The translations under genes were made by a program, and so were the position numbers. Positions 22,049 through 60,795 of a stretch of DNA of 64,000 nucleotides are shown one piece after another (position 1 is the first letter of the stretch; every line of letters starts with the position of its first letter). This DNA comes from Vicinamibacteria bacterium (lineage in GTDB: Bacteria; Acidobacteriota; Vicinamibacteria; Marinacidobacterales; Marinacidobacteraceae), in contig CAXXLQ010000004.1 in assembly GCA_963668695.2 (NCBI GenBank), forward strand, positions 1,536,001 through 1,600,000, written 5' to 3'. The notes below the pieces were generated by a model. That model was not told where the DNA came from, searched no databases, and saw only the letters and a program-made list of their open reading frames with translations.

Positions 22049-22448
22049 GGACCACTGCACCCCGGGCGCGAATGCGCTCGGCGATCTCCGCTGGGACCTT
22101 CTCCAGCTCGATCACGTCGACCGGTAGGGTCGTTCCCTCCATCGCGATGCCGAGTGTCCGAAAGAACTCGGCCGGCCCGTGCAGCCCCTCGATTGCGAAG
22201 TCGATGTCCGAGATTTCACTGAATCGCGACCGATCGAGCAGCGACCCCCACTGGTAGATGCGGCGCGGGTTTACTTGTTCCGCGATTGCCGCGACGATCG
22301 CGCTCGCGTCCCGGGTGGCCTGCTCGAAGCGTGCATCAATCCGCGCACGCCGCCGCCTTTCCTTTTCGGTCTGGAATGCCCGGGCCCGATCGAGATCGAT
22401 GCCGAACTCGTTTGCCACCGCGTGCCAGTATAAGCGGCGGCGGCGCAC
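22029..22448 (-). CDS. Minimal nucleotidyltransferase (MNT) antitoxin
   Basis: RRIYQWGSL...F.EISDIDFAIEG, VDVIELE; start uncertain. Confidence 0.85.
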   Translation of the reverse strand: MRRRRLYWHAVANEFGIDLDRARAFQTEKERRRRARIDARFEQATRDASAIVAAIAEQVNPRRIYQWGSLLDRSRFSEISDIDFAIEGLHGPAEFFRTLGIAMEGTTLPVDVIELEKVPAEIAERIRARGAVVHERSDP

Positions 22449-25879: not shown

Positions 25880-26032
25880 CGGCGGGCGAAGTCTATGGAT
25901 TGGCCAGCAAGGACGGGGCTGGCTATGGACCGACGCGGTCCGGGTGGGCATCTCGTGCCGGAGACCGCGGAAACCGCACGACTCCTCCGGATGGCTGTGG
26001 GTTCCGACCAGCCCGCCCCGGCAGAGCGGACC

Positions 26033-27380: not shown

Positions 27381-27546
27381 GAAACAACTGCCAAAGGAGG
27401 GACCGCCGACCTCCAGGTCGGCATCGCAGCCCGGGAGGGCTGCGAAACGCGCAATGCCAATTCCGGAGGGCCGCGAAACGGGGAGCGCCGCCTCCCTTCG
27501 GTGATATAACGCCGAATCGGCCCATCCCTCGTTCCAAGGAGGCGTC

Positions 27547-29496
27547 ATGGCGAACTCATCCGGCAGTTCCCGCGAGTTCACGCTCCGGGCTGTTCTCCTC
27601 GGCCTGTTCATGGCCGTGGTGCTAGGGGCGGCGAACGCCTATCTCGGCATCCGCGCCGGCCAGACGGTCGCCGCGACCTTCCCGGCCGCGGTGGTCTCCA
27701 TGGTCGTTATCCGGGGGCTCTTCAAGGGGGGCACCCTCCTCGAAGAGAACATCGCCCGGACCACCGCCTCGGTGGGAGAGGCGCTGGCCGCCGGGGCCAT
27801 CTTCACGCTTCCGGCGTTCCTGATGGCGGGGGCGTGGGAGGAGTTCCACTACCTCGAGAGCACCCTGCTGATGCTGGTCGGCGGGCTGCTCGGCATCCTC
27901 TTCGTCGTCATCCTCCGGCGGAGCATGGTCAACGACCCCGAGCTGCCGTTCCCCGAGTCGGTCGCCGCCGCCGAGATCCACCGCGCCGGCAAGGGAGCGA
28001 GCGGCGGGCGGCTGCTCTTCCAGATGATGGGGGTCGGCGCCCTGATCGAGGTGTTCAAGAACTCGAAGGGGATCCAGCTCTTCACCGACCGGATCGCCGG
28101 GGCCTTCGGCTACGGCACCTTCCAGGGGTCGGTCTCGGTCGGCGGCCAGTCCTTCGGTGCCGCGGCGCAGCCCGGAGTGCTCCCCTTTTCCACTCCGTCG
28201 GCTTCGCCCGCCTACCTGGGCGTGGGCTACATCATCGGCTTCCGGCTGGCGGCGCTCACCTTCTCGGGAGGGGTCTTCGCCTGGTGGTTCATGATCCCGG
28301 CGGTCCTCTTCTTCAATCCCGAGTTCGCAGATGCGAACCGGTTGGCGGCGGCGGGAGCCGATTGGAGCGCGGTCAGCAGCGTCATCTGGGCGGAGCTCGT
28401 GCGGCCGATCGCGGTGGGGGCGATGATCGCCGGTGCGGTCTGGACCCTGCTCCGGATGCGGAAGTCGCTCGGCGAGGGGCTCCGCCGCTCCTTCGTCGAA
28501 ATCCGGACCGGCCACCCGGCCGGCTCGGGCGATGAGAAGGACCGCGACATTCCCTTCAGTTGGACCACCGCGGGCGTGGTCGCCCTCGTCATCCCGACCT
28601 TCTTCCTCTACAACTACTACACGGGCCAGGCGCTCGGAGCGCTCGGCTCCGCGATCGTGATGATCATCGCCGGGTTCTTCTTCTCGGCGGTCGCCGGCTA
28701 TCTGGTCGGCGTGATCGGGAGTTCCTCGAACCCGGTCTCCGGCCTGACCATCTCGACGCTGCTGCTGGCCGCCTTGTTGATGACCTTCCTCGGCGTCACC
28801 GGCATGCAGGGGGTGACGGCGGTGCTCGGGGTGGCCGCGGTGGTCTGCTGCGCCTGCGCGGTCGCCGGGGACATGCTCCAGGATCTCAAAGTGGGTCAGA
28901 TCCTCGGGGGCACCCCGTTCCGCATGGAATGGGCCGAGATCATCGGGGTGATCTTCGCCTCGTTCTTCCTCGTCCTCCCCATGATGCTCCTCCACCAGGG
29001 AGACATCGCGTCGGGCGGAATCGGGATTGGAGGCGAAGAGCTGCCCGCGCCCCAGGCGGGCCTGATGGCGCTCCTGTCCCAGGGCATCGTGGGCGGCGAC
29101 ATGCGCTGGCCGCTCGTGGTCTTCGGGATCGCGCTCTGTTTCTTCCTGATCCTGATTCAGGCGCCCTCCCCGATGCTCATCGCGGTGGGGATGTACCTGC
29201 CTCTCCAAACCACCTTCGCCATCTTCGTGGGTGGCTTCTTCCGCTGGGTGACCGATCAGCGGATGGCGTCGCTGCCGGCGGAACGGCGGTCCCTTGGGGA
29301 GAGTGCCGGGACGCTGATCGCGTCCGGACTCATCGCCGGGGAGGCGCTGATGGGGGTGGCGCTAGCCGGATTCGCGGTATGGGACTTCCAGCTTCCGGTG
29401 CTGGTGCCCGCGCCGTCCGGGGTGCCGGGATTCCTGGTGTTCGTGGTTCTCGGCTGGTTCCTGATCCGGATTCCGCTGCGCCACGCCCGGGGGTAG
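27547..29496 (+). CDS. OPT family oligopeptide transporter
   Basis: EFTLRA, ANAYLG, EENIART.AS.GE, LPFPES, GSSSNPVSG, QDLKVG.ILG.TP, LPAPQA, ASGLIAGE. Confidence 0.95.
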   Translation: MANSSGSSREFTLRAVLLGLFMAVVLGAANAYLGIRAGQTVAATFPAAVVSMVVIRGLFKGGTLLEENIARTTASVGEALAAGAIFTLPAFLMAGAWEEFHYLESTLLMLVGGLLGILFVVILRRSMVNDPELPFPESVAAAEIHRAGKGASGGRLLFQMMGVGALIEVFKNSKGIQLFTDRIAGAFGYGTFQGSVSVGGQSFGAAAQPGVLPFSTPSASPAYLGVGYIIGFRLAALTFSGGVFAWWFMIPAVLFFNPEFADANRLAAAGADWSAVSSVIWAELVRPIAVGAMIAGAVWTLLRMRKSLGEGLRRSFVEIRTGHPAGSGDEKDRDIPFSWTTAGVVALVIPTFFLYNYYTGQALGALGSAIVMIIAGFFFSAVAGYLVGVIGSSSNPVSGLTISTLLLAALLMTFLGVTGMQGVTAVLGVAAVVCCACAVAGDMLQDLKVGQILGGTPFRMEWAEIIGVIFASFFLVLPMMLLHQGDIASGGIGIGGEELPAPQAGLMALLSQGIVGGDMRWPLVVFGIALCFFLILIQAPSPMLIAVGMYLPLQTTFAIFVGGFFRWVTDQRMASLPAERRSLGESAGTLIASGLIAGEALMGVALAGFAVWDFQLPVLVPAPSGVPGFLVFVVLGWFLIRIPLRHARG

Positions 29497-29651
29497 AGCA
29501 ACAGTGGCCAAGGCCCCAAGGGCATGATCTGACGCGACGATCGGAACCCAAGAGTAGTGTCCGTTGCCAGGGTCCGTTGTGTGCCCCTGACCTTCATCTC
29601 AGGGCGATAGCGGTATCGCCTCCATCTCCAGCACAAAGGGAACAAGACCAA

Positions 29652-29870
29652 ATGAAAGTAAGTATCAAACAGTTCAATGTAGAAATGGATGTCAAGACAA
29701 AGGGGATCGAATTCGAGGTAAGAACCCCAAAAGGGGAGCACTTGGGGGATTTGGTGCTGACCAAGACCCGATTGGAGTGGCACACCGGGAAGGCACAGAG
29801 CGGCCCTCAAGTTGACTGGAAAGACTTCATTGGATGGATGGAACAAGCTGACGCGGAATCCAAGAAGTGA
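29652..29870 (+). CDS. Small hypothetical protein (72 aa), AT-rich relative to its flanks
   Basis: MKVSIKQFNVEMDVKTKGIEFEV...GDLVLTKT.LEW..G....VDWKDFIGWM; purine-rich upstream sequence. Confidence 0.65.
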   Translation: MKVSIKQFNVEMDVKTKGIEFEVRTPKGEHLGDLVLTKTRLEWHTGKAQSGPQVDWKDFIGWMEQADAESKK

Positions 29871-29981
29871 GTAGCGCGGCACGCGTCCCGGGCGGATGGG
29901 CCTTGCGGTCGGGTTACAAGGGGGCCGGAACGCGGCGCGACCCGCCGCCGATTGTGGACTCCCGGCGGCGGTACGCACCAC

Positions 29982-30096
29982 GATTGCCGCGATGCGGCGG
30001 GCGGTGTCCGTGAAGCGTTGGAGCTCTTCGGGGTCGATGGGCCGTTTGAGGACCGAACTCCCGCGATAGGAGAGCCACTTCTTTAGGACCTGGTAG
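29982..30096 (-). pseudogene. Isolated diverged copy of the 3' end of the type ISP-like R-M gene
   Basis: Translates to YQVLKKWLSYRGSSVLKRPIDPEELQRFTDTARRIAAI; collinear with 33276-33390. Confidence 0.85.
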
Positions 30097-30248
30097 TCAC
30101 GTTTGTCCTCGATGGGATTGGCTCACGGTTCCGATTCCCATACGGTACGCGCCCGACCAGATGAGAACCGTGTCCCCGACGACAAATCGCGCCGTTCCTC
30201 CCGCGCTTACCCACATTCGGACATGGGTCGGTCGCCCGTGAAACTACT

Positions 30249-32186
30249 GTGAAGATTTCAGACATTCTCTCAAGCATTGACGTTGGCACGTTGACTCTGC
30301 CGCAGTTCCAGCGCGGGTTCGTGTGGAACCGGGATCAGGTCCGCGCTCTCTTTTCATCGCTTTACCGCCGCCATCCGGTGGGTGGCATGCTCGTGTGGGT
30401 CACCGGACCGGAGACGGCAGCCCATCGCGGGGGTCAGGAGCTTCCGCCCGGAGCCGTCAAGCTGCTCCTTGATGGGCAGCAGCGCCTTACGACGCTCTAC
30501 GGCGTTCTGCGGGGCAAGCCGCCGCCGTTTTTTGATGGGGATGAACGGACGTTCACCGGACTCATGTTCCATCTTGGAGATGAGGTCTTTCAGTTCCGCC
30601 AGCCGGTCAAGATGCGCGATGACCCCCGTTGGGTCGACGTGACAGCGCTTATGACCGCTGGGGTCGAAGGCCTCTACCCACTTCTCCAACGTGCGGTTCC
30701 CGACGTGTCCCAGTGGGGGGACGCGCACCCGAAGCTCACCCGTCTTCTGGGCATCACCGAGATCGAGTTGCCGCAACAGGACCTCGTTGGAGAGGTCATG
30801 ACGCTGGAGATTGTGGTGGACATCTTCAATCGAGTGAACACCGGCGGCACGAAGCTGTCCAAGGGTGACCTCGCGCTCTCCCGCATCTGCGCCGACTGGC
30901 CGGATGCCCGCGACGTGATGAAGCAGCATCTGGCCGAATGGGGGAAGCACGGCTACGACTTCAGCTTGGACTGGTTGCTCCGGTGCGTGAACACGGTCCT
31001 TACTGGCGAGGCTGAGTTCCGCTTTCTGCACGACGTGGAATCCGACGACATCCGAGGAGGGTTGACGCGAGCGTCGAAGCAGATCGAGAAGGCCCTGAAC
31101 CTGATCGCCGCCAAGACGGGACTGGATCACGCGCGGGTCCTGTTCGGCGGTTTCGCTTTCCCGGTGATCGCGCGCTACCTCGACAGCAACGGCGGTGCGC
31201 TCTCGCCCCGCGATGAGGGCAAACTGCTCTTCTGGTACCTGCAGGCGGGAATGTGGGGACGCTTTTCCGGCTCGACCGAGACGAGGATCAACGAAGACAT
31301 CCACGCCGTCGAAAACGGCGGGCTCGACGGTCTCCTCGAGAAGCTGCGGGTATGGCGGGGAGGGTTTGAGGTCGAGCCTGAGCACTTCGACGCTTCTACG
31401 ATTGGGGCCCGGTTCTATCCGGTGCTCTACTTCCTGACGCGGATGGGTGAGGCGCGAGACCTCTGCAGCGGGCTGCCGCTCAAGAAGGGAATGCTCGGCA
31501 AGATGGCGAGCCTCGAAGTCCACCACATCTTTCCGAAGAAGGTGCTCCGGGAGGCGGACTACGATCGACGGCAGATCAACGCCCTCGCGAACTTCTGCTT
31601 CCTTACGAAGGACTGCAATCTCCACTTGGCGGCACAAGCGCCCGAGGACTACTTCCCCCGCATCGCCGCCGAACAACCCGGCGCTCTCGAATCGCAGTGG
31701 ATCCCGATGGACCGTCGGCTCTGGACGGTGGACCGCTTCCCGGAGTTCCTCGCGGCACGGCGGAAGCTGCTGGCCGAGGCGGCGAACGTTCATCTCGCGA
31801 GCTTTGTGGAGGGAGATGACCGCTGGGGAGCGGCGCAGATCGCGCGAGCCCCTGCGCCAGTACCCCCACCGCCGGGCGGGATCACGTCCGAAGATGAGCG
31901 GGAAGCACTCGACGAATTGCGAGCGTGGATGCGACTCCAGAAGCTCCCCGAGGGCGAGCTTTCTTGGGATCTCGCCGACGAGACAACCGGAGAACAGCTC
32001 GCGGTTGTGGATCTCGCGTGGCCTCGCGGGATTCAGGAAGGACTTAGCGGCAAGGTGGCTGTGCTCATCGACGAAGACGCCGCCACGCATCGAGCCGTGG
32101 CCGACGCCGGGTTCCGCTGTTTCGACACGGTGGAGCGGTTCCGGGAGCACGTAAGCCGAGAAGTCCTCGGAGACCGCACCGACTAG
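30249..32186 (+). CDS. GmrSD-like (DUF262 + HNH/DUF1524-like) modification-dependent restriction protein with an extra C-terminal domain
   Basis: LPQFQRGFVW, LLDGQQRLTT, IFNRVNTGG..L, EVHHIFP...NALANFCFL...N. Confidence 0.88.
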   Translation: MKISDILSSIDVGTLTLPQFQRGFVWNRDQVRALFSSLYRRHPVGGMLVWVTGPETAAHRGGQELPPGAVKLLLDGQQRLTTLYGVLRGKPPPFFDGDERTFTGLMFHLGDEVFQFRQPVKMRDDPRWVDVTALMTAGVEGLYPLLQRAVPDVSQWGDAHPKLTRLLGITEIELPQQDLVGEVMTLEIVVDIFNRVNTGGTKLSKGDLALSRICADWPDARDVMKQHLAEWGKHGYDFSLDWLLRCVNTVLTGEAEFRFLHDVESDDIRGGLTRASKQIEKALNLIAAKTGLDHARVLFGGFAFPVIARYLDSNGGALSPRDEGKLLFWYLQAGMWGRFSGSTETRINEDIHAVENGGLDGLLEKLRVWRGGFEVEPEHFDASTIGARFYPVLYFLTRMGEARDLCSGLPLKKGMLGKMASLEVHHIFPKKVLREADYDRRQINALANFCFLTKDCNLHLAAQAPEDYFPRIAAEQPGALESQWIPMDRRLWTVDRFPEFLAARRKLLAEAANVHLASFVEGDDRWGAAQIARAPAPVPPPPGGITSEDEREALDELRAWMRLQKLPEGELSWDLADETTGEQLAVVDLAWPRGIQEGLSGKVAVLIDEDAATHRAVADAGFRCFDTVERFREHVSREVLGDRTD

Positions 32187-32307
32187 GGCGCTTGGCCGAT
32201 ATGCCGAAGTTGTCGCCCGCGTCGGGACTAGCTATCTGCACGACCCTCGCAGGTCGCCCTGAAGGTCACGCTGTTGAGGCTCTACCGCTGGATGAGGCAC
32301 CAGTGCA

Positions 32308-33221
32308 ATGAGCAGACGGATCGCTCCAGCGGCGATCCAGGCGCTAAAGGAGGCCTTGACACTAATCTATTGGTACAAGGGCGACCTCAGAAGTTTCGTA
32401 TCTCAGTGCCTATCTGCACCGGACGTGTTGGCGCGGCTAGATTGGCAGGGATACAAGCGAGACGTCGTGGGGACTCTAGTCGACTACCTCGCCACCAACG
32501 AAGAGCTGTATCAAAAAGAACTCATTGGACTGATGTCGGCCGTGTGCCAGGTTGAGGACTTTTCTCATCTCCGCAGACTCGAGGACGGAAATGACAAGGC
32601 CAAAAAAGCAAGAGCTGCAGTAAATGCTCTGCGAGTGCATATGACGGGGCATCAAGATCTGCAGAGTGATAAAAAAGAAGTTGAGACTAGAAGAAGGGAG
32701 GCACGCAGTAGAGCGGTTCAGGCTAGTGCTGTTCGCCAGAAGCTAGAGGAGATCAAAGTAACCTATTCTGACTTGGCGGTATCGACTAACCCCCAGCGTC
32801 GGGGGTTCTTGTTGGAGAAGGTTCTGACGCGCCTGTTCGATGTAGTCGACCTCGACCCTAAGGCTTCCTTCAGAATAGATGGCGAACAGATTGACGGAGC
32901 ATTCAGTTTCGAAGGTACTGACTACTTGTTGGAAGCCAAGTGGCAGAAGGACCCGGTTAGCGCTACGGCACTAGACAGTCTGGCCGGGAAAATACGACGA
33001 AGCTCGACAATACTCTGGGTCTCTTCTTGTCCATCAACGGTTACTCCGACGACGCGATAGGAGCAGTCGCATCGGGGAGGCGCACTGTGATTCTGATGGA
33101 TGGTGCTGATCTCATGGCCGTACTTGAAGGCCGAATAGATCTAGTTCAACTGTTGCTGCGCAAGCGTCGTCACGCGGCTCAAACGGGCGGGATCTACCTT
33201 CGCGTGGAGGCGATCCTGTAA
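32308..33221 (+). pseudogene. Mrr-like PD-(D/E)xK restriction endonuclease with a 1-nt frameshift near 33000
   Basis: RGFLLEK, EQIDGAF...YLLEAKW; continues in another frame as (K)LDNTLGLFLSINGY...ILMDGADL; lower GC than flanks. Confidence 0.8.
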
Positions 33222-33245
33222 GGGAGTGACCGCAGCCGATCGGAG

Positions 33246-36200
33246 TCAGGGGGACGCGGTGGAGGTGACTTGCAGGATCGCGGCGATGCGGCGGGCGGTG
33301 TCGGTGAAGTGTTGGACTTCTTCGGGGTGGAGAGGGCGTTTCAGCACAGAACGCTCGCGATAGGAGAGCCATTTCTTCAGGACCTGGTAGCCGCCGAGGC
33401 GGTAGTTCCAGACGGCGGCCGGGACGTTTCGCCAGAAGGCGCGCTCGTTCAGCCAGATGTCGAAGGTGGAGTCGCCGAGCGTTGGGATGGCGTGGGCGAG
33501 CGCGCTGTGTTCGTCAGGGGCGAATGCGCGCTGACGGGCTCGGCCCGTTCCGGGCATCACGACGTCCCCCACTCCGAAGTGTCCCCAGCCGGCGGTGACG
33601 CCGAAGTCGCTCCCGGCCATGTTGTTCCCATCCGCTGTGGCAGGGACGGCTAGCACGGCGAGTTCCGGGCGAAGCGTGCCGTCCGACACTCCGGCGGCAG
33701 GAGTGTCCGGATCCAATAGCCGAGCCAGTTCCCTTCCTAGCGCCGCCGACTGAAGCAGGTCCTGCCGCGCGTCTTTCTCTTGGCCGTCGGGCCACCCCGG
33801 CACCGGAATCCGCGGCCACCCTACGGTGAGTGCTCCAGCGTTGGCCTGCCGGTATGCCGGGTCATGAAGCTTGGACAGCACGTGGTGAAACAGATCCTCG
33901 ACGGTTGCGTCGAGCCTTTCCAGATATTGCTCGGCAGCGGCGGACAGATTCGGGCGACACGGCAGACCAGCGCCACCCATTCGCAACGAGCCGCCCCGGA
34001 GCCACGCCGGGAAGAACTGAATCCCCCAATATCCGTACTTGAGATTGCCGAGATGAGAGGTGTACGTCCCTTGTGAGAAATCGGACTGGACTTCCCGCTC
34101 ATTGGCGCAGAGCCACTTGTTCCCTTCGAAGACGTGTGGCCGGTATTCGGCGCGCTTCCGGTCCAGCAGGGTGGTTTCCGCTTCCCAGTAAAGCCACCGT
34201 ACGTCGAACGGGCGATAGGCGAAGCGGACGAAGCCAGATTCGGTCGGCCCGCCGCGAGCCACGAGCACTTCGCGGACGGCGCGCGCCGGGAATCCCCCTG
34301 TCGTCTCCATCGCGTTGGGATAGCGCCGCGTGATTTCTTCATGGGTCAGGTCTTTGTCGAAGTAGTCTGCGATGCGCGCCTTGAGACGGTCGAGGTCTAC
34401 ATCAATGAGAAAGCCGTCGCGGCTTGTCTTGACCCCGGGAAAGGAGGCCGGAAAGAGTTCGGGAAGCGAGGGCCACAAGAACCAATCCTCACTGACCGCT
34501 ACCGGCTTGAAGGGGAGACCGAGTCGCACGTTCGGACGGAGCGCTGCGTAGCCGGCGTCCGGTGTCGCGGTGTCGAGGCTATCGAGCAGCGCGCGTCGGC
34601 GGTTGTCAGCCTTCGCTTCGATGAAGTCTCTATAGAGCACGCGAGCGCCGTCTCCACCGCTGGAGCGTGGACCAGAGCGGCACAGGAGAGTGATGCTCGT
34701 ACCGATCTTGATTCCGGGTGACTGTCCGGGCAGTGCGAAGATGGTTTCACTAGTTTGGCCGTCGGGGGCATATTCCGAAATGATCCGGTCGCCGTGCAGG
34801 TTGTCGATCCGGACAGAGTCGAACGCGTCGACGTAGCGCTCGCGCATTCCCGTGAAGGACAGTCCGTCTAGCCATGAGTAGTTGGAGATGAAGCAGACGA
34901 CACCGCGTCCGGTCTTCTCGACGATGCGGCGCTCCGCCATTCGAAAGAAACGGACGTAGAGATCGTTCAGCCCCCGACCCTTCGGCCGGCGCACGCGCTT
35001 TGTGGTCCGGTAGGCATCCGTGAGTTCGCGCTCCTCGTCCACCGCCATTCCGGCGAACCCGTTGTACGGGGGGTTGCCCAGGATCACGAGGATCGGCGTC
35101 TCCTGCTTCACCCTCTCCGCCCGGTCGCGCTCCTCCTCCAGTTCTGGAAAGAGAAGGTGCTTCCGCTCCTTCTGTTCCCATCCCGTGAGCGCATTTGTCA
35201 GGAAGACCTGCGCTCGCTCGGCCCCATCGTCGGACAGCGGCGCGTCAAGGCCCTGCATCGTCAGGCCGACCTGCAGATGGGCCACCACGAAGGGCGCCGG
35301 CATGATCTCGAAGCCGAAGACCCGCTTGGTCGCGGCCTCCTTCACCCGGGCGCCGACGAGAGCTCCCAGGCCCTTGACTTCGAGATTGGCAGCAATCCGG
35401 CGGAGGACCTCCGCCAGGTAGGCTCCGGTGCCGCAACACGGGTCGAGCACATAGACGTTCTCGGCGGCCAGCCCGTCCGCGATCCCGAGATCGTCCTTCA
35501 GCGCCCGGTCCACCCGGGCGACCATGTAGCGGACGATCTCGTTCGGCGTGTACCAGACGCCGAGCTGCTTCCGGAGTTCCGGGTCGAAGGCGGCGAGGAA
35601 CGGCTCGTAGAAGTACGGGACCGCCTCACCCTCCCGGAAGCGCGCGAAGAACGCCTTCCGGTCCACCCGATCGAGTGTCGCGGCGGTCCAGTCCAGCACC
35701 TCAACGAGGCCGAGGGGTTGGAGGCGGCCCGGATCGGAAATCTGCTGGAAGAGGGCTCGGAGCACGGGAGCGCGGAGATGCCAGACCGCGGTCTTCCAAT
35801 CGAAGCGGTCCTGCTTCGATGGGTGGGAGCGGGCCCAGAGCACCCACGCCGAGAACACCCCGTAGAACAGCGTTTGCACGAGCGTGGAGTGGAAGAAGCG
35901 TTTCCCGCGATCCCCCTCGAACCGGATCCCGAGCGCCTCTTCGAGCGCCGTGCGGAGCGACTCGAAGGCCGCGGCTTCGTCGGCCGCCTCGACCCGCGCG
36001 AGCCCGTCGCGCGCGTAGGAGGCGAGGAGCCAGGCGAGATCCTTCGGCTCGGTGAGCGCGGCGCTGTAGGACAGCACACGGGCGAGGTACTCGACGAGGC
36101 GACCGCCCACTTCCTGTGCGAAAGCGCGGGGTTTCTCCAGCTTCCGATGGAACTCCGCCGCAGTCTCTGCGAGGCGGAACGCCTCAAGGGTCGTCTGCCC

Positions 36201-36614
36201 TCGTGTCGCATCGGGGCCGACCAACCGAAACTCGCGCAGGTTGGTGACCAGCACCAGGCGGTAGCGAGCCCAGTAGCGGGCCACCTGCTCCCCGGCCGCG
36301 ACCTCCGCCACGTCATCTGCGTCGGGCTTGACTTCCACCACGCCGCGTTCCGGTATCTGTCCCGGACGGGGCCGCCTCCGTTGCAGTTGCTTGGCCGAAT
36401 AGAGCCCGACGTCCGGATGCCCCGCGCCCTGATCGGCGAGTTCGGAGACGCAGAAGACCTTGGGTTTCAAGCCGCTGCCGACGGTGTTCAGCAGGTTCAC
36501 GAGCGGGGGGTAGGTGGACCGCTCGACAGTCGCGCCGCCCGAAGCGCGCTGGCGGGCGAGATCACTCAGGTAGTGCTCGACCGCGGTGGTGAGTCGGGGG
36601 TTTGCTCGGGTCAT
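33246..36614 (-). CDS. Type ISP-like/IIG single-polypeptide restriction-modification enzyme (N6-adenine MTase; no helicase domain seen)
   Basis: N-terminal HPD...VEVK nuclease-like motif; GVWYTP, LDPCCGTG, GNPPY, YRPFD, GGYQVLKKWLSYR. Confidence 0.9.
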   Translation of the reverse strand: MTRANPRLTTAVEHYLSDLARQRASGGATVERSTYPPLVNLLNTVGSGLKPKVFCVSELADQGAGHPDVGLYSAKQLQRRRPRPGQIPERGVVEVKPDADDVAEVAAGEQVARYWARYRLVLVTNLREFRLVGPDATRGQTTLEAFRLAETAAEFHRKLEKPRAFAQEVGGRLVEYLARVLSYSAALTEPKDLAWLLASYARDGLARVEAADEAAAFESLRTALEEALGIRFEGDRGKRFFHSTLVQTLFYGVFSAWVLWARSHPSKQDRFDWKTAVWHLRAPVLRALFQQISDPGRLQPLGLVEVLDWTAATLDRVDRKAFFARFREGEAVPYFYEPFLAAFDPELRKQLGVWYTPNEIVRYMVARVDRALKDDLGIADGLAAENVYVLDPCCGTGAYLAEVLRRIAANLEVKGLGALVGARVKEAATKRVFGFEIMPAPFVVAHLQVGLTMQGLDAPLSDDGAERAQVFLTNALTGWEQKERKHLLFPELEEERDRAERVKQETPILVILGNPPYNGFAGMAVDEERELTDAYRTTKRVRRPKGRGLNDLYVRFFRMAERRIVEKTGRGVVCFISNYSWLDGLSFTGMRERYVDAFDSVRIDNLHGDRIISEYAPDGQTSETIFALPGQSPGIKIGTSITLLCRSGPRSSGGDGARVLYRDFIEAKADNRRRALLDSLDTATPDAGYAALRPNVRLGLPFKPVAVSEDWFLWPSLPELFPASFPGVKTSRDGFLIDVDLDRLKARIADYFDKDLTHEEITRRYPNAMETTGGFPARAVREVLVARGGPTESGFVRFAYRPFDVRWLYWEAETTLLDRKRAEYRPHVFEGNKWLCANEREVQSDFSQGTYTSHLGNLKYGYWGIQFFPAWLRGGSLRMGGAGLPCRPNLSAAAEQYLERLDATVEDLFHHVLSKLHDPAYRQANAGALTVGWPRIPVPGWPDGQEKDARQDLLQSAALGRELARLLDPDTPAAGVSDGTLRPELAVLAVPATADGNNMAGSDFGVTAGWGHFGVGDVVMPGTGRARQRAFAPDEHSALAHAIPTLGDSTFDIWLNERAFWRNVPAAVWNYRLGGYQVLKKWLSYRERSVLKRPLHPEEVQHFTDTARRIAAILQVTSTASP

Positions 36615-36911
36615 CCGGAAATGTGCTCGGCGGACGGAACTCGCCGTACGGAGGCCGGTGCATTCTCCGGCATAGCCGCGGGTTTCTCCTACCTCGGATC
36701 ATCCGGGGCGTTGCGGCAGTCGGCGCCGGGGCCGTAGGCATCGCGCGTGTTGCCCGCCGCCGGCGGGCCATGCTGATCAGGAGGTCGGCTTCCCTCGCCA
36801 GCGCGCCATCAGGCTCGCAGCGCTCCGTGCCTCACGCGGAACCGCTGCCCAGCGTTCCCGAGAACTCCTGCCGCGGGGCCGCGACGGGGTGCGCGTTCGA
36901 GAAGCGCGGGC

Positions 36912-37733
36912 TTACGGGAGTAGCTTGATGAGGGCCACTACCAGAGCCACTTGGGCCATCACCGCCCCGAACATCCACTTGATCAGGTCGGCACGCAATT
37001 CGGCGACGCGTTTCTCCACATCGGCCCGGATCATCGCCCGGGTGTGCTCCAGATCCTTCCGGATCATCGCCTGGGTGTTCTCCGAATCCTTCCGGATCAT
37101 GGCCACGTCCGCCTTCGTAGCTACGTCTCGCCGGATATTCGCTTCGGCGTCCTCCAGATCCTTCCGGATCATCGCCTGGGTGTTCTCCGAATCCTTCCGG
37201 ATCATGGCCACGTCCGCCTTCGTGGCTACGTCTCGCCGGATATTCGCTTCGGCGTCCTCCAGATCCTTCCGGATCATCGCCTGGGTGTTCTCCGAATCCT
37301 TCCGGATCATCGCCACGTCCGTCTTCGTGGCGACGTCTCGCCGGATGTTCGCCTCGGCGTTCTCCAGATCCTTCCGGATCATCGCCACGTCCGTCTTCGT
37401 GGCGGCGTCCTTCCGGATGTTCGCCTCGGCGTTCTCCAGATCCTTCCGGATCATCGCCACGTCCGTCTTCGTGGCGGCGTCCTTCCGGATGTTCGCCTCG
37501 GCGTTCTCCAGATCCTTCCGGATCATCGCCACGTCCGTCTTCGTGGCGGCGTCCTTCCGGATATTCGCTTCGGCGTTCGCCAGGTCCGTCTTCGTGGCGA
37601 CGTTCCTGATCCATGGACCCATGTGCTCTTCGGCCAGAACCTCGGCCAGCCCTTCCTCCATGCCGGCCTCCGTGAGCCGCTTCACGAACCGGTGGCTGTC
37701 GAACACTGCTTCTGCAACCTGTGCTGGAGTCAT
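36912..37733 (-). CDS. DUF1640/CCDC90-like membrane-anchored coiled-coil protein with an expanded stalk
   Basis: FDSHRFVKRLTEAG...AEVL head, repeated ATKTD necks, C-terminal LIKWMFG + TM; start at ATG 37733. Confidence 0.85.
   Translation of the reverse strand: MTPAQVAEAVFDSHRFVKRLTEAGMEEGLAEVLAEEHMGPWIRNVATKTDLANAEANIRKDAATKTDVAMIRKDLENAEANIRKDAATKTDVAMIRKDLENAEANIRKDAATKTDVAMIRKDLENAEANIRRDVATKTDVAMIRKDSENTQAMIRKDLEDAEANIRRDVATKADVAMIRKDSENTQAMIRKDLEDAEANIRRDVATKADVAMIRKDSENTQAMIRKDLEHTRAMIRADVEKRVAELRADLIKWMFGAVMAQVALVVALIKLLP
37030..37600 (-). repeat. Intragenic tandem repeats: about 3 x 72 bp, then about 3 x 105 bp
   Basis: ANIRKDAATKTDVAMIRKDLENAE x3, then ANIRRDVATK.DVAMIRKDSENTQAMIRKDLE x3. 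Confidence 0.9.
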
Positions 37734-38069
37734 GCTACCAGCCGGCGGCACGCGACCGGAGATCGCTCGACGGTCTCGGCGGCGATGTTCTCCCGGCGAG
37801 GAGAATCTGCGAGGCGGGCGGTGGGGCGGCCCTCCAGAGTGGGTTGGCGGTGAGCGTCGGTGGGGTGTGGTCGGTATCCAGCATCGGGAGTTCCTTCCTG
37901 GAGCGCGGTGACGGAAACGCGACGTCTCCGTCCTACCCACTTAGACGGAATCCCGCCCCGATTCTTCCCGCGTCAAGGCGGCGATGTGGAAAAGTCGAGT
38001 TGGAGATTCCCGCCTGTCACGGCGCTACGCCGCTGCCCAGACACGCCGTTCCAGACGAGTCGGCCGGGT

Positions 38070-39357
38070 GAACATGTCGCAGTAGCCCGATCTGCGGCGC
38101 GAACATGTCGCAGTAGCGGGGTCGGCTGGGCGCGAACATGTCGCAGTAGCGGGGTCGGCTGGGCGCGAACATGTCGCAGTAGCGGGCAGTCGGGGTCGGC
38201 TGGGCGCGAACATGTCGCAGTAGCGGGGTCGGCTGGGCGCGAACATGTCGCAGTAGCGGGGTCGGCTGGGCGCGAACATGTCGCAGTAGCGGGGTCGGCT
38301 GGGCGCGAACATGTCGCAGTAGCGGGATCTGCCGGGTGAACATGTCGCAGTAGCCCGATCTGTGGGGTGAACATGTCGCAGTAGCGGGGTCGGCTGGGCG
38401 CGAACATGTCGCAGTAGCCCGATCTGCCGGGTGGACATGTCGCAGTAGCGGGGTCGGCTGGGCGCGAACATGTCGCAGTAGCCCGATCTGCGGGGTGAAC
38501 ATGTCGCAGTAGCGGGGTCGGCTGGGCGCGAACATGTCGCAGTAGCCCGATCTGCGGGGTGAACATGTCGCAGTAGCGGAGTCGGTTGGACGAGAACATG
38601 TCGCAGTAGCGGGATCTGCGGGGTGAACATGTCGCAGTAGCGGGATCTGCGGGGTGAACATGTCGCAGTAGCGGGGTCGGCTGGGTGCGAACATGTCGCA
38701 GTAGCCCGATCTGCCGGGTGAACATGTCGCAGTAACGGGGTCGGCGGGGCGCGAACATGTCGCAGTAGCGGGATCTGCGGGGTGAACATGTCGCAGTAGC
38801 GGGGTCGGCTGGGCGCGAACATGTCGCAGTAGCCCGACCTGCCGGGTGAACATGTCGCAGTAGCGGAGTCGGTTGGACGGGAACATGTCGCACTAGCCCG
38901 ATCTGCGGGGCGAACATGTCGCAGTAGCCCGATCTGCGGGGTGAACATGTCGCAGTAGCGGGGTCGGCTGGGTGCGGACATGTCGCAGTAGCCCGATCTG
39001 CGGGGTGAACATGTCGCAGTAGCGGGGTCGGCTGGGCGCGAACATGTCGCAGTAGCGGGGTCGGCTGGGCGCGAACATGTCGCAGTAGCGGGATCTGCGG
39101 GGTGAACATGTCGCAGTAGCGGGGTCGGCTGGGCGCGAACATGTCGCAGTAGCCCGATCTGCGGGGTGAACATGTCGCAGTAGCGGGGTCGGCTGGGCGC
39201 GAACATGTCGCAGTAGCGGGATCTGGCGGGGGAACATGTCGCTCTAGCGGGGTCGGCTGGGGTCGAACATGTCGCAATAGCGGGATCTGGCGGGGGAACA
39301 TGTCGCTCTAGCGGGGTCTGCTGGGGTCGAACATGTCGCAGTAGCCCGATCTGCGGG
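38070..39357. repeat. Array of 40 copies of the core GAACATGTCGCAGTAGC with 16-bp (GGGGTCGGCTGGGCGC) or 14-bp (CCGATCTGCGGGGT / GGGATCTGCGGGGT) linkers
   Basis: Cores counted from 38070 to 39329, unit length 33 or 31 bp (one 41-bp unit). Confidence 0.95.
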
Positions 39358-39521
39358 CACCAGCTCGGAACTGGAGGTTCTTGCCGCCGCCCGCCTGCGG
39401 CGGGCTGTGCCGGCCTGGAGGCCGGCGGCCAGTTCTCCCGGTGGGGGCCCCTTGCCGGCGCGCCATGCCGGCTGTCGGCGTTCCGGTGCGACGGCGAGGC
39501 TACGGACTCGTTCGCGGCGCC

Positions 39522-40697
39522 TCACTCGGCGGCGCAGGTCGGCTCGGAACCGATGCGGCTCCGGTTGCGCGCGACGAGGTCGTACGCCGCCTGGCCGACG
39601 CGGTCGAAGACGGGAAAGAAGAACCCGATCATGCCGAGGATCGCGACGTTGCGCGCCCACGCGGGTCCCCAGTGCAAGCTCAGGAGAACGCCGAGCATGA
39701 CCAAATGGGTGACCGGGTTGTAGAGCAGCATCAACTTGACCGCGTGGAAGCCTTGAGCGATGTGCTTGCCGCCGGTGACGATGTGCAAACGCTTCGCGAG
39801 GGCGTCCGGGGCGATACCAAAGCGGTCGCCGATTCCACTCTGGAACGCGGTCCAGCGAAAGGCGCCGTCGAAATCGAAGGTCTCGAACCACCGTTTCGTC
39901 TTCGCGCAGATTCCGCAATCGCCGTCGTAGATGACCTCCGTCGTCGATTCGGGCCAGCGGGCGAACGCGAGATAGGCGGCGGGTGCTACGTAGAGAAACA
40001 GAACGAACGTGATTCCGGTGAAGACCGTCATCGACGCGTGAAACAGGATGCCGAGCCAAATCGCGAGAGGCCACCAGCGCGGCACGATGAAGCCGACGAA
40101 GAGGCTCAGTTCGGTCGCGATCGTCGCCCAGCCCATGAACTTGGACAGAGCCATCGGTGGCAGGAGAGCCGCGACGCGCGTGTAGAGGTCGTGCTCGATG
40201 TTGACGACGGTCCAGTGCTCGAAGAACTGACCGGAAAGCCAGTCGGGATCGAGCGCCTTGTTGAGTCCGGCGCCGAGGTAGATCAGCGCGATCTGTGCCC
40301 GCACGAGCCAGACCGACCGCTTCGACGCGTAGAGCCCGATGAGGGTGAGAATCGCCCCGCAGAAGAACGTGTTGTTGGCCCAGTAGATCCTCGACGAGGC
40401 GATCCCGACGAGTACCGTCGCACCGACCACGAAGGAAGCCAGCCGCACCCCGCGGTTGAAGATCAAACTGGCGGAGCCGACGAGGAACAGGATCTGCAGC
40501 GCGGTTCGGAACCGCACGGGATCCCCGATCCGGTCGAACACGGACACAAAGGGAAGGAACGGATCCGGGAGCGTCCACACGTGGCCGGTCGCGAGCATCG
40601 TGACAACGATGAGCTTGGCCGACAGCAGCAACGGTACGGGGAGCGGCGTGTCGCCGAGCCGCAGCGGATTCCACGACGGTTTCATCGTGGTGGCCAT
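39522..40697 (-). CDS. HTTM-like membrane protein with C-terminal DCC1/DUF393 thiol-disulfide oxidoreductase-like domain
   Basis: Q.ALIY.GAGLNK..PDWLSG, GILFH; VIYDGDCGIC. Confidence 0.8.
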   Translation of the reverse strand: MATTMKPSWNPLRLGDTPLPVPLLLSAKLIVVTMLATGHVWTLPDPFLPFVSVFDRIGDPVRFRTALQILFLVGSASLIFNRGVRLASFVVGATVLVGIASSRIYWANNTFFCGAILTLIGLYASKRSVWLVRAQIALIYLGAGLNKALDPDWLSGQFFEHWTVVNIEHDLYTRVAALLPPMALSKFMGWATIATELSLFVGFIVPRWWPLAIWLGILFHASMTVFTGITFVLFLYVAPAAYLAFARWPESTTEVIYDGDCGICAKTKRWFETFDFDGAFRWTAFQSGIGDRFGIAPDALAKRLHIVTGGKHIAQGFHAVKLMLLYNPVTHLVMLGVLLSLHWGPAWARNVAILGMIGFFFPVFDRVGQAAYDLVARNRSRIGSEPTCAAE

Positions 40698-41023
40698 GTC
40701 CACGTCTCCTCCGGACGTCCGTTGACGGTGAAAGCGACGACGACTCGGGCGCTGTCGTCCCGGCCGTAGGTCTGCTCGTATTGCCGGACTTTGTCGAGCA
40801 CGTGCTGGACGGCCTGCCAGTTGCCGCCCTTCGCCGGCTGCCGATAGCGCGCCTCGATCGCTTCGGGGTCGAGCTCGCGCCCGTCGATGACGACCGTGAT
40901 CGAGTAGAGGTTCTGAGAGTCCATCGGCGCCCAGCAGAAGTAGCGAGACGGGACGAAGCGCGCATAGCCGATCATGGCGATCTGGAAGCCGAGAAGTCCG
41001 ATGGCGGCGAGCGTGCGTGTCAT
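40682..41023 (-). CDS. Small hypothetical protein coupled to the HTTM-like gene
   Basis: MTRTLAAIGLL..., RYFCWAP.D, QYEQTYG, VNG.PEETWTWP; overlaps the downstream start. Confidence 0.7.
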   Translation of the reverse strand: MTRTLAAIGLLGFQIAMIGYARFVPSRYFCWAPMDSQNLYSITVVIDGRELDPEAIEARYRQPAKGGNWQAVQHVLDKVRQYEQTYGRDDSARVVVAFTVNGRPEETWTWPPR

Positions 41024-41040
41024 GCGCTTTGGACCAACCC

Positions 41041-42558
41041 CTAAGAATCGAGGATACGCGACGCACGGCGCCCAAACACGGCGCTTGCTGCCAAGCCGAC
41101 GACGACCTGAACCACGAGCGCCACCGGAGCAATCCACTGGAAGCTCACCGGGTCGCCTCCGGTCTCGGGATGGGCTCCGAAGATGGGTCCGGAGAACGCG
41201 ACGAGCACGGCCGCGGCGATACCTGCCGCGGTGCCCACGTAGGCGCCGACGGGACGCACTTGGGGAAGGAACAGCGCGAAGAGGAAGAGACCGAAAATCG
41301 GCGCGGTCAGGAGGTTCGACGTCTTGGACGTCACCTCGGTGATGTTGCCGGGGACGAGGTACATGAGGGAGCTTCCGAGCACGATGACTCCGCCGGTCGC
41401 CGCGGCGAGCCAGCGGGCCAGCCCGAGCTTGCTCGCGTCGTCGCGCGGATGCGCACGGAAGCGTCCCAGGAAGTCCGTGAGCACCACCGCTGAGATCGAG
41501 TTCACGCCGGAGTCGACGCTGGACATGGCGGCGGCGAACATGGCGGCGACGACGAGGCCCGCGATGCCGGTCGGAAGCTGGTGGCCGATGAAGAACGGGA
41601 ACACCTGGTCCGCGTCGCCGCGAAGCGACATCGCCTCGCCGAGCCGCTCGGGATGGGCCTCGAAGTAAGCGAGAAGAGCGAAGCCGACGAGCGCCAGCAC
41701 GAGCGTGACCACGGTGATGGCCGCCAACTGGGTGCGGTAGGCCCGCCGGGCCGCGCGCAGCCCGGTCGTTGCCATGAATCGCTGCACCGAAACCTGGTCG
41801 CCGCCCGCGGTGGCCGTGTACCAGACGAGCGTCGACATCAGCGTTCCGAACACGGTCACGCGCGTCGCCGGGTTCGTGCTGAACAGCGGCTGAGAGTCCC
41901 AGTTGGCATGCCACGTCGTCGGAAACCATTCGAAACCACCGAGCTCCAGGGTCACGATGCCGACAACCACCAGCGCCGCCGCGAGTAGCAGCGTGGACTG
42001 GATGCAGTCGGTGACGACGACGGCTCGCAGTCCTCCGAGGGACGTGTAGACGACCGCCACGACCGCCGTGCACAGGGCGATGAGGGGTACCGCGGATGGG
42101 CCGGCGCCGATCATCACCGTCATCGCCACCGCTGCCGCGTATACGAGAAGCGACATCCACGCGAGACGAAGAACGATGAACATCGACGCCCCGAGGAGCC
42201 GCGCCCCGGCGCCGAGGCGCACTTCGAGGAGCTCGTAGGCGCTCGTCACGCGGTGCTTCATATAGACCGGAAGCAGGCCGTAAGCGACGACGAAATAGAC
42301 GACGGGGAGCGCCAGGAGCTGAACGAGAAGGACGGGCCCCCGCCCGAGTGTTTCGCCGGGTACGGAAAGGTAGGACACCGTGCTGACGAGCGTCGCGAAC
42401 AGCGAGACGCCCACGGCGACGGGGTGAAGCCGTCCGCCCCCGACGAAGTACTCGCTCGTCGACGATTGACGTCTTCCGTAGAACCAGCCGAGCCAGAGAG
42501 TGAGACCCGCGTAGCCCGCGAGAACGAGCCAGTCGACAGCGGCCAAGCCTTGATTCAT
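41041..42558 (-). CDS. Sodium:solute symporter family transporter
   Basis: EYFVGG, SAYELLEVRLG, GGLRAVVVTD, DQVSVQRF, AAAMSSVDSG.NS. Confidence 0.93.
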   Translation of the reverse strand: MNQGLAAVDWLVLAGYAGLTLWLGWFYGRRQSSTSEYFVGGGRLHPVAVGVSLFATLVSTVSYLSVPGETLGRGPVLLVQLLALPVVYFVVAYGLLPVYMKHRVTSAYELLEVRLGAGARLLGASMFIVLRLAWMSLLVYAAAVAMTVMIGAGPSAVPLIALCTAVVAVVYTSLGGLRAVVVTDCIQSTLLLAAALVVVGIVTLELGGFEWFPTTWHANWDSQPLFSTNPATRVTVFGTLMSTLVWYTATAGGDQVSVQRFMATTGLRAARRAYRTQLAAITVVTLVLALVGFALLAYFEAHPERLGEAMSLRGDADQVFPFFIGHQLPTGIAGLVVAAMFAAAMSSVDSGVNSISAVVLTDFLGRFRAHPRDDASKLGLARWLAAATGGVIVLGSSLMYLVPGNITEVTSKTSNLLTAPIFGLFLFALFLPQVRPVGAYVGTAAGIAAAVLVAFSGPIFGAHPETGGDPVSFQWIAPVALVVQVVVGLAASAVFGRRASRILDS

Positions 42559-45665: not shown

Positions 45666-45797
45666 GCCGGCGGCCGGTCCCACCTCGCGGGGTTTCGGCC
45701 ATTCCCACTGGTCCGATAAGGCGGGGCAAGCTCAGCCTGCGCGCAGCGATGCCGGTCTTCATGAAGACCGGCGTTCCCTCCCTTTCCCGCCGGGCTC

Positions 45798-47243: not shown

Positions 47244-48153
47244 CACCCTGTGGTGAAACCCAGGCGGCCCAGTTCTCCCGGTGGGGGCTCGCCCGGCGAT
47301 CCATCCCGGCCAAACAACCGGTAGCGAAACCCACGCGGCCCAGTTCTCCCGGTGGGGGCTCGGCCGGCGATCCATCCCGGCCAAACAGCCGGTAGTGAAA
47401 CCCGCGCGGCCCAGTTCTCCCGGTGGGGGCTCGGCCGGCGATCCATCCCGGCCAAACAACCGGTGATGAAACCCACGCGGCGTTCGGCCGGCGATCCATC
47501 CCGGCTGACCGCGTCGCTTCGCGCCGCTCATCGTTGCGTTTCAGTCGGAATACACCCGGTATTCCTCCCTCACGCGCCTTGTCATCCGGGCGCCTCCCCG
47601 GCCTCGGCGCTCACCCGGGTTCCACCACCGGCTGTTAACCGCGTCGCTGCGCGCCGCTCATCGTTGCGTTTCGGTCGAAATACACGCGGGCCAGTTCTCC
47701 CGGTGGGGGCTCCTCCCTCGCGCGCCTTGTCAGCCGGGCCCCCACCGGGAGGACTGGCCCCACCGGGAGAACTGGGCCTCCCCGGCCTCGGCGCTCACGT
47801 GGGTTCCACCACCGGCTGTTCACCACTGCGCTTCGCTCCGTTCTGCGTTGCGTTTCGGTCGAAATACACCCGGGCCAGTTCTCCCGGTGGCGGGCTCGGG
47901 CATTTCTCCCTCACGCTCCTCCCTCGCGCGCCTTGTCAGCCGGGCCCCCACCGGGAGGACTGGCCCCACCGGGAGAACTGGGCCTCCCCGGCCTCGGCGC
48001 TCACGTGGGTTCCACCACCGGCTGTTCACCACTGCGCTTCGCTCCGTTCTGCGTTGCGTTTCGGTCGAAATACACCCGGTATTCCTCCCTCACGCGCCTT
48101 GTCAGCCGGACCCCCACCGGGCTCGGCGCTCACCCGGGTTCCACCACAGGCTG
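47244..48153. mobile_element. Compound cluster of the modular element (several nested or tandem copies, 71-bp subrepeats)
   Basis: Left end CACCCTGTGGTGAAACC; internal ends ...CCACCACCGGCTG; right end CCACAGGCTG-CTAG. Confidence 0.78.
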
Positions 48154-60414: not shown

Positions 60415-60795
60415 CAGCCTGTGGTGAAACCCACGTGAGCGCCGAGACGGGCGAGGCCCAGTTCTCCCGGTGGGGCCAGTCCTCCCGGTGGGGGCCCGGC
60501 TGACAAGGCGCGCGAGGGAGGAGCCCCCACCGGGAGGACTGGCCCGGGTGTATTTCGACCGAAGCGCAACGCAGAGCCCCGCGAAGCGGGGCGGTGAACA
60601 GCCGGCGGTGGAACCCGCGTGAGCGCCGAGGCCGGCGAGGCGCCCGCCTGACAAGGCGCGTGAGGGAGGAGCCCCCACCGGGAGAACTGGCCCGAGTGTA
60701 TTTCGACCGAAACGCAACGATGAGCGGCGCGAAGCGGCGCGGTTCAGGCGGGATGGATCGCCGCTCGAACGCCGCGTGGGTTTCACCACAGGCTG
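60415..60795. mobile_element. Modular element (double unit)
   Basis: CTAA-CAGCCTGTGGTGAAACCC...GGGTTTCACCACAGGCTG-TTAA. Confidence 0.8.

Follow-up and report, generated by a model that had tools for sequence, protein, structure and literature searches.

The DNA analyzed here, referred to as the window, is a 64,000-nucleotide stretch of a Vicinamibacteria bacterium genome (assembly GCA_963668695.2, contig CAXXLQ010000004.1, positions 1,536,001 to 1,600,000 of the forward strand). It contains a tandem array of 40 short units arranged head to tail on the plus strand (38070..39357), each beginning with the core GAACATGTCGCAGTAGC. The array occupies the gap from the stop codon of a membrane-protein gene to the start of a coiled-coil protein gene. 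The coiled-coil gene (36912..37940, minus strand) has 105-bp and 72-bp tandem repeats of its own, and the left flank of the array (37941..38069) extends to its start codon. On the opposite side, the right flank (39358..39521, plus strand) carries copies of two other dispersed hairpin repeats and leads to the gene for a DCC1-like/MauE-like membrane protein (Pfam; 39522..41132, minus strand), the stop codon of which faces the array. We found that the array belongs to a dispersed, non-coding, intergenic and hypervariable satellite family, built of A/B dimers and carried by a Vicinamibacteria lineage; this description is secure.

A search of the window for the core, with up to three mismatches allowed, gave 40 matches, all on the plus strand between 38070 and 39345 (33 exact, five with one mismatch, two with two). 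In dinucleotide shuffles the number of matches averaged 0.15 and never exceeded 2, and no further copy of the core was detected outside the array in the 64-kb window. Twenty units are 33 bp long (A) and 18 are 31 bp long (B), with one further unit each of 41 and 29 bp. A preliminary description of the array had given 40 units, a 17-bp core and linker classes of 16 and 14 bp, as well as a run of A units at the left, two occurrences of GGAGTCGGTTGGACG and the B sub-variants CCGATC and GGGATC; all of these were borne out. The run consists of six A units (units 2-7; 38101..38306, plus strand) and is a local amplification interrupting the A/B alternation. It includes the 41-bp variant (38167-38207, plus strand), a 33-bp unit with an 8-bp insertion beginning GGGCAGTC at 38184. 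The motif GGAGTCGGTTGGACG was found at 38578 and 38865; the two marker A units (units 16 and 25; linker GGAGTCGGTTGGACGR) are 287 bp, or nine units, apart and delimit the segment 38561..38880 (plus strand).

The alternation of unit classes had been called irregular. Its presence in the later part of the array was confirmed, but it is more regular than this word implies: neighboring units switch class in 29 of 37 cases versus 18.9 expected from shuffles (p=0.0005). Tandem Repeats Finder reported periods of 33, 64, 128, 192, and 287 bp, with the top score at 287 bp (nine units). The periods of 64, 128, and 287 bp indicate a 64-bp A+B dimer with higher-order blocks. Core degeneracy had also been described for the right end, where three of the seven variant cores (five of the nine mismatches) are indeed located (39232-39312). 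These cores are the A-type core of a second unit subtype, not decayed copies. The four units in question (39201..39328, plus strand) match common units of the arrays in a sister genome, CBDHFO010000017 (hereafter CBDHFO), where this type dominates. Their A units have cores ending in CGCTCTAGC and their B units have the linker GGGATCTGGCGGGG; the B unit was found in identical form at two CBDHFO loci (L017 and L049). The array ends with a truncated B unit of 29 bp (39329..39357, plus strand).

A total of 185,579 species genomes were scanned for three exact ACATGTCGC motifs spaced 16-32 bp apart, and 63 loci were returned. The majority were unrelated repeats with different periods; the same core with a 30-34-bp period was found in about 30 arrays of 5-59 units each, in seven Acidobacteriota assemblies. 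The carriers are CBDHFO, OZ244986, and OZ252286 (Candidatus Marinacidobacterium, placed in the class Vicinamibacteria), OZ219815/6 (Vicinamibacteria), JAJDUD, and JAJEIY. This range is a lower bound, because the scan needed three exact 9-mers. At least nine array loci are present in CBDHFO and four each in OZ244986 and OZ252286, all of them intergenic, and all cores of each array lie on one strand. Across assemblies the family core is ACATGTCGC followed by A/T, G/C, and TAG. The A monomers have 33 bp and combine ACATGTCGC with TCTAGC or AGTAGC, while the B monomers have 30-31 bp and combine it with AGTAGC; A units mostly carry a core ending in CGCTCTAGC and B units mostly one ending in CGCAGTAGC. 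Each assembly has its own linker sequences, yet lengths of 33/31 and the A, B, A, B order are retained. Most arrays alternate almost perfectly: 38/38 neighboring pairs in L062, 39/39 in L043, and 54/57 in L010. Outside the arrays, the 9-mer was found nine times in the 594 kb of collected loci versus 3.5 expected, and only two of these occurrences were unit-like; solitary units are thus nearly lacking, and the element is in essence confined to arrays. Two arrays of one genome, located at different loci (L003 and L043), share blocks made up of several identical unit variants in matching order.

The preliminary description had raised the question of whether the core recurs elsewhere together with linked genes. 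It does recur, so that the array is far from the lone minisatellite considered there, but no gene is consistently linked to it and its neighbors are unconserved. Among 204 open reading frames (ORFs) located within 6 kb of arrays and clustered by BLAST, only genes of an IS21-family insertion sequence (IS) and true orthologs recur. Pfam was run on 144 of 199 flank ORFs, a set that omitted duplicate IS21 ORFs, most ORFs of L011, L024, L057, and L034, and six long distal ORFs. In this set, taken by itself and with no genome-wide baseline, many genes near arrays are of the mobile, toxin-antitoxin or defence kind; they comprise recombination and transposition genes (integrase, serine recombinase, DDE and Mutator transposases) as well as HipA, a Fic-like protein, MazF, RES, AbiEii, and HsdM. 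Arrays were found in either orientation, whether the adjacent genes converge, diverge or point the same way, and left flanks share nothing among non-orthologous loci, which thus lack a common leader. Two other candidate regularities were rejected: a replication-oriented polarity (orientation relative to local GC skew, 15:12) and G-quadruplexes or G-richness as a family trait, since the OZ219815/6 units are not G-rich. A sister repeat was observed in L023 (9315-9995); it consists of 21 units of 32 bp with the core AGCATGCGTCTATCCC, arranged in 96-bp triplets, and stands directly between an array of the main family and an intact IS21 copy. Diverged relatives of this kind escape the 9-mer scan.

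Comparison of orthologous loci revealed how the arrays change in length. With its array masked, the window aligns at 93-96% identity on both array sides with L049/L050 in CBDHFO, L057 in OZ252286, and L011 in OZ244986. The number of units at this locus is 40 in the window, about 35 (33 exact cores) plus a 2.5-kb IS in L049, 12 (11 exact) in L057, and 5 in L011. The four loci have the left sequence in common up to about 10 bp before the first unit, and they are identical in the last, truncated unit and in the right flank. L011 and L057 contain the marker GGAGTCG.TTGGACG once, close to the 3' end, but the window contains it twice, 287 bp apart. A second orthologous pair has 32 (L038) versus 5 (L024) units, and a further set has 31, 14, and 27 units (L026, L034, and L028). 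Fixed ends with internal differences indicate internal block duplication and loss rather than addition at one end, and the polarized unit-by-unit addition offered earlier as one explanation is contradicted by these comparisons, including the duplication of a nine-unit block. The array is therefore a hypervariable minisatellite, or variable-number tandem repeat, in the usual sense (head-to-tail units, the number of which differs between close relatives at the same locus), and its changes are those expected if 64-bp dimers recombine unequally or slip during replication. L034 in OZ252286, which is orthologous to L026 in CBDHFO, has CTP-transferase and aminotransferase genes on the left and isocitrate dehydrogenase and malate dehydrogenase genes on the right; directly to its left is a Fic-like gene that in CBDHFO stands beside L017, about 480 kb away. 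This hints at exchange between arrays.

Near-identical units of 31-33 bp are hard to assemble from short reads, and the exact number of 40 is unverifiable without the reads. It is nonetheless extremely improbable that the unit number, or the entire array, is a product of mis-assembly: the family was found in seven independent assemblies, including megabase-scale chromosomes, the flanks match those of orthologous loci, and the unit variants are ordered in a non-random manner.

Within single arrays the core and the linkers have had different fates. The mean pairwise identity of the 9-mer ACATGTCGC is 0.98-1.00, whereas that of the linkers of the same units is 0.66-0.94. In L043 (39 units) the values are 0.98-1.00 for the 9-mer and 0.70 for the linkers; in L038 they are 1.00 and 0.66, with 19 distinct linkers in 23 units sharing one core. 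A walker accepting up to three mismatches found 43 of 45 cores intact in L043. Since the 9-mer is kept while linkers have diverged, homogenization of whole units cannot explain the pattern; it implies either selection on the core in each unit or copying by something that requires the core. Spacing is conserved as well. The mean period across the family is 31.5-32.3 bp, in agreement with the period of about three helical turns noted earlier for this array, and a dimer length of 63-64 bp is reached with three different monomer pairs (33+31, 33+30, and, in L038, 32+32).

These data bear on the simplest alternative, in which the arrays are functionless, slippage-prone DNA, the cores resemble each other through concerted evolution and harmless IS insertions pile up. 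Such a neutral minisatellite would show the strong variation in unit number seen at orthologous loci and the higher-order blocks typical of unequal crossing-over. The failure to find a conserved neighbor, an orientation rule or a structure is also consistent with it, as is the presence of one decaying array (L055). However, homogenization should affect whole units, and yet linkers at 66-70% identity coexist with 9-mers at 98-100% in single arrays; moreover, assemblies in which the linkers have diverged throughout still share the core, the A/B order and the dimer length. We consider this alternative unlikely, also in view of the distribution of insertion sequences.

Identical elements of 2521-2523 bp, which encode IstA (470 aa) and IstB (265 aa, PF01695), interrupt five arrays in CBDHFO. 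The target duplications, 5 bp in length, are CATGT in the core in three cases, GCTGG in an A linker in one and GGTTC in a B linker in one, and the insertions are present in both orientations. A sixth intact copy abuts the sister array in L023. In L017, L028 (twice), L014, and L015, arrays adjoin diverged ends that belong to this IS lineage, and in L020 a short IS-end-like stretch is located about 30 bp to the right of the array. Altogether, DNA of this lineage was found inside or against seven of the nine array loci in CBDHFO, and related ends abut arrays in four other assemblies. When the 594 kb of loci were searched for the IS end motif, it was inside or against arrays in all cases except L033, where it is about 400 bp away. 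Six intact copies occur in about 11 kb of arrays in CBDHFO and none in about 170 kb of flanks; by our own estimate, uniform insertion is very unlikely, and this imbalance is another difficulty for the neutral minisatellite. The arrays thus serve repeatedly as the insertion target of an IS21-family element. Three array ends (L010 left, L062 left and L062 right) have a common sequence of about 100 bp next to them. It resembles the 3' end of what we take to be an IS630-like transposase gene, and an ORF with HTH_32/HTH_29 domains was found 672 bp from the L062 array; both point to further IS debris at arrays.

No common structure was detected for a transcript of the array. Mutual information was computed for 112 distinct B and 126 distinct A units, and the top-scoring pairs of positions showed no Watson-Crick pairing. 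RNAalifold, applied to 31 A+B dimers from 12 arrays, gave no compensatory pairs on either strand at about -4 to -5 kcal/mol, and the sole helix it proposed was the self-complementary ACAUGU pairing with its neighbor. Stretches of 128 nucleotides folded singly had z-scores of -1.0 to -5.7 and no shared fold. Palindromes with a stem of at least 4 bp were found in the B linkers of 41% of 112 distinct 31-bp units (16% in shuffles) and 66% of 38 distinct 30-bp units (15% in shuffles); in A linkers they were about as frequent as in shuffles (17% versus 14%). Of the two small dyads reported earlier, GCGA-ACATG-TCGC hinges on the preceding linker and is not retained in other genomes, and CCCG-ATCTG-CGGG is confined to the 'CC' B sub-variant; both do occur in some units, but neither is a defining feature of the family. 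Rfam gave no match for the whole window at the gathering score, and none for the array with its flanks at E<=1.

The array does not encode a protein. On the plus strand, TAG in every core closes all three frames. The minus strand is open in all three, but a coding repeat was rejected, as the 442-aa minus-strand ORF reads the core as LLRHV, YCDMF, and ATATCS in turn; it cycles through the three frames because each 31-bp unit shifts the frame, as had been pointed out earlier. Comparison of this ORF with 5.8 billion proteins gave 35 similar sequences, of which 32 are one-member clusters and the rest belong to clusters of 2, 2, and 3 sequences. All derive from ENA assemblies (one also from NCBI), none has a Pfam domain, and the four inspected show the same three-frame pattern. 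These look-alike proteins are gene-caller artefacts on related arrays.

A processed repeat RNA had been among the first suggestions. In this model, an unlinked nuclease would cut a transcript at each core into pieces of 31-33 or 64 nucleotides, acting as decoys, antitoxins or guides. The unit size is near that of ToxI-type repeats (about 36 nucleotides), a sequence-specific RNase would also impose conservation of the core at the level of sequence only, and closure of the plus-strand frames by TAG is compatible with an untranslated product. On the other hand, there is no common leader or promoter-like flank, the orientation to neighboring genes is inconsistent, and no toxin or cas family was found adjacent to arrays among 61 window and 144 flank ORFs. 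Linkers that fall into two recurring classes indicate that there is no memory, and neither the lack of compensatory pairs nor the empty Rfam searches speak for a structured product. A repeat RNA is, in our judgment, quite improbable. With the ToxI system the arrays share tandem units of 30-odd nucleotides; they differ in that the neighbors vary from locus to locus, no ToxN/AbiQ-type family lies downstream and no fold is conserved. CRISPR arrays likewise consist of direct repeats at regular intervals, have a constant core and run to tens of units. Known CRISPR repeats of about 23-55 bp, however, are separated by unique spacers of similar length, whereas here the constant part is 9-17 bp and linkers of 14 or 16 bp recur in two classes; there is no leader, no cas gene in the 64 kb or among the 144 flank ORFs, and growth is not one-ended. 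The earlier exclusion of CRISPR, based on the recurring linkers and the absence of cas genes, therefore stands.

A selfish origin has more in its favor than a repeat RNA, though we still regard it as improbable. In this scenario an unlinked core-specific nuclease, recombinase or RAYT-type transposase (RAYT, REP-associated tyrosine transposase; REP, repetitive extragenic palindromic element) nicks DNA or recombines it at the core, thereby duplicating units and seeding new arrays; only units that bear the core are copied, and the core is conserved without benefit to the host. The dispersed, multi-locus distribution and the identical variant blocks shared by L003 and L043 are in line with such a process. 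The B units, moreover, combine GTAG with a small palindrome more often than shuffles do, and GTAG plus a hairpin is the layout of REP elements, of which several other REP-like families are present in this genome. As in REP elements and bacterial interspersed mosaic elements (BIMEs), the arrays are dispersed, intergenic and GC-rich, occupy many loci per genome, have two alternating unit types with defined linkers and are favored by an IS. Unlike REP/BIME sequences, the units are all head to tail, with no inverted pairs, the conserved core forms no hairpin, arrays reach 59 units, and solitary units are practically absent. The lack of a palindrome excess in the A linker also speaks against a selfish origin, and no RAYT/Y1, HUH or other candidate enzyme was detected among the 144 flank and 61 window ORFs scanned. 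REP elements are known as IS targets; in one study, this role is ascribed to IS110-family elements (10.1101/2025.01.17.633520). No report of REP-element targeting by IS21 was found in the literature searched.

We favor, with a probability of about 40%, a mechanism in which the arrays are phased binding sites for a sequence-specific DNA-binding protein encoded at an unlinked position. This reading is preferred because conservation is confined to primary sequence, is independent of orientation and context and is enforced in every unit, and because the mean spacing is about three helical turns. The 9-17-bp core would be the recognition sequence, with selection acting on every single unit, and the protein, encoded elsewhere in the genome, would bind double-stranded DNA. 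With cores about 32 bp (three turns) apart, bound copies would be placed on one face of the helix and could assemble cooperatively into a filament or wrap. If arrays are bound or distorted, this could also account for the regional preference of the IS21 element, with insertion points that vary within the unit. Helical phasing is used by cooperative binders: in the pap region, Lrp sites are ~32 bp apart, and plasmid centromere and iteron arrays are further examples.

Several observations weigh against binding sites. One array, L055, is decaying, with 6 of 14 cores intact according to the mismatch-tolerant walker, and arrays with decayed cores were not sampled by a scan for three exact 9-mers. 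No recurring binder or enzyme was found beside arrays in the flank ORFs analyzed with Pfam. Descent from one 64-bp ancestor would also give a 32-bp phasing, and the core could instead be conserved by an amplification enzyme specific to it or because it is recognized in RNA. The IS enrichment is based only on the 594 kb around arrays. Finally, the genome is rich in other dispersed repeats, which makes a selfish origin plausible.

A bolder extension of the binding-site model, to which we give little credence, is that the cell maintains the arrays, coated with protein, at several chromosomal sites as landing pads, where the ATPase by which IS21-type elements choose their target, and other mobile DNA, would be lured into harmless sequence. 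Such a bacterial transposon sink would be loosely analogous to eukaryotic transposon-trapping clusters. The idea is kept in view because of the IS21 DNA at most CBDHFO array loci and the related ends in four further assemblies, together with a core maintained in every unit; integrase, serine-recombinase, Mutator and presumed IS630-like genes at other arrays are additional grounds.

Among other known systems, STAR elements of Staphylococcus aureus and mycobacterial interspersed repetitive units (MIRUs) are also short direct repeats with recurring spacers, located at many intergenic loci and varying in copy number between strains. They have no sequence relationship to the present family, which differs in its strict A/B dimer, in a core that outlasts linker divergence and in much longer arrays; the overlap with flanking ORFs known for MIRUs was not seen. 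Plasmid centromeres and iterons (F sopC with 12 x 43 bp, RK2 iterons) are tandem protein-binding sites at whole-turn spacing, with a constant core and variable spacing sequence. These known arrays adjoin par or rep genes on one replicon, whereas the present ones occupy at least nine chromosomal loci per genome. No ParA, ParB, or Rep family was found within 6 kb of the arrays scanned or in the window, and blastn of the array gave no match among plasmids or phages. The arrays thus agree with known classes only in the generic definition of a minisatellite and in the dispersed, intergenic character of REP/BIME sequences; membership in CRISPR, ToxIN, centromeres, or coding repeats fails. The literature searched contained nothing on the core sequence, on 'Marinacidobacterium', or on Vicinamibacteria in connection with tandem repeats, and the repeat family is previously undescribed.

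Dispersed repeats with an unexplained conserved core have twice marked real machinery, namely REP/RAYT and CRISPR. Should a binding protein exist, the arrays would represent nucleoprotein sites of a new kind on the chromosomes of a phylum that is poorly known. If none exists, they are still a marker for strain typing and a natural case of region-specific IS21 targeting. The properties of the family, i.e., a core kept unit by unit, a fixed two-unit period of 64 bp, extreme length variation and the attraction of one IS lineage, are testable.

The left flank of the array is kept at orthologous loci, except for the last ~10 bases before the first unit and a few substitutions, and has no counterpart at arrays of other loci. 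In the right flank, hairpins GCCCGCC..GGCGGGC (39389) and GTGCCGGCC..GGCCGGC (39407) are followed by the reverse of CCCCACCGGGAG (39429-39451) and by ATGCCGG..CGGCGTTCC (39465-39484). The coiled-coil gene adjoins an array at the orthologous locus only. Its repeats are in frame, and the ORF has 342, 234, 187, and 118 aa across the four orthologous loci; it is a second hypervariable repeat, a coding one, beside the non-coding array. Beyond the membrane-protein gene, Pfam identified a sodium:solute symporter, an enzyme of the DHDPS family and a HipA kinase. A promoter scan of 36.5-40 kb gave no promoter-like site and hence no sigma-70-like promoter in the array gap; a terminator scan of the same region gave two sites, both within the DCC1-like gene and without excess over shuffles.

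The preliminary description had also placed the array between a defence block and a transporter block. The defence block (about 29.5-36.8 kb) contains genes for a GmrSD-type nuclease (30249-32186, plus strand) and a type ISP/IIG-like restriction-methylase (33246-36614, minus strand), both assigned by Pfam, and is missing from the orthologous locus L049. There, sequences matching 27499-29499 (a transporter gene) and 36792-37709 (the coiled-coil gene) are only 139 bp apart, which identifies the GmrSD and restriction-methylase genes as part of an insertion of ~7.3 kb in the strain of the window. The position of the array beside these genes is incidental, without a functional tie, and a link between array and block is not sustained. 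Besides the two genes, the insertion (29500-36791) holds an ORF of 250 aa. In OZ252286 (L057) a hipA gene takes its place; the site is a variable hotspot. No cas, par, rep, ToxN-like or Y1-transposase family was detected by Pfam among the 61 window ORFs scanned. Further upstream of the array is a defence-type neighborhood. It comprises a HepT-like/nucleotidyltransferase toxin-antitoxin pair (21566-22448), an adjoining gene (22514-25951) for a protein of 1145 aa with PD-(D/E)XK, RNase H-like and SF1 helicase domains in one chain, and two DUF4143 ATPases (1419-2648 and 26033-27298).

Other repeats are abundant in this genome. An ORF of 117 aa (20857-21210) without a Pfam match contains three perfect tandem copies of 90 bp (20928-21198). 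The motif CCCCACCGGGAG, usually present as CCCCACCGGGAGAACTGG, was found at 35 sites of the window, 21 on one strand and 14 on the other (e.g., 801-1193, 4116-4151, 39435, 47740-47981, and 60464-60684). Some of these are within 71-bp tandem arrays (870-1224 and 47253-47481), and the motif represents another abundant dispersed family. A REP-like element, in which a variable hairpin is followed by ATGCCG-stem-loop-stem-CGGCGTTCC, was observed in four intergenic regions of the window (8880-8950, 15260-15330, 39465-39484, and 45740-45790). An enrichment of the CGGCGTTCC hairpin beside arrays was rejected: it is four-fold denser there than in the loci overall, but no more than expected for intergenic DNA. 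Among the 19 copies of the CGGCGTTCC repeat near arrays, 16 are located to the right of the array and are oriented like its cores.

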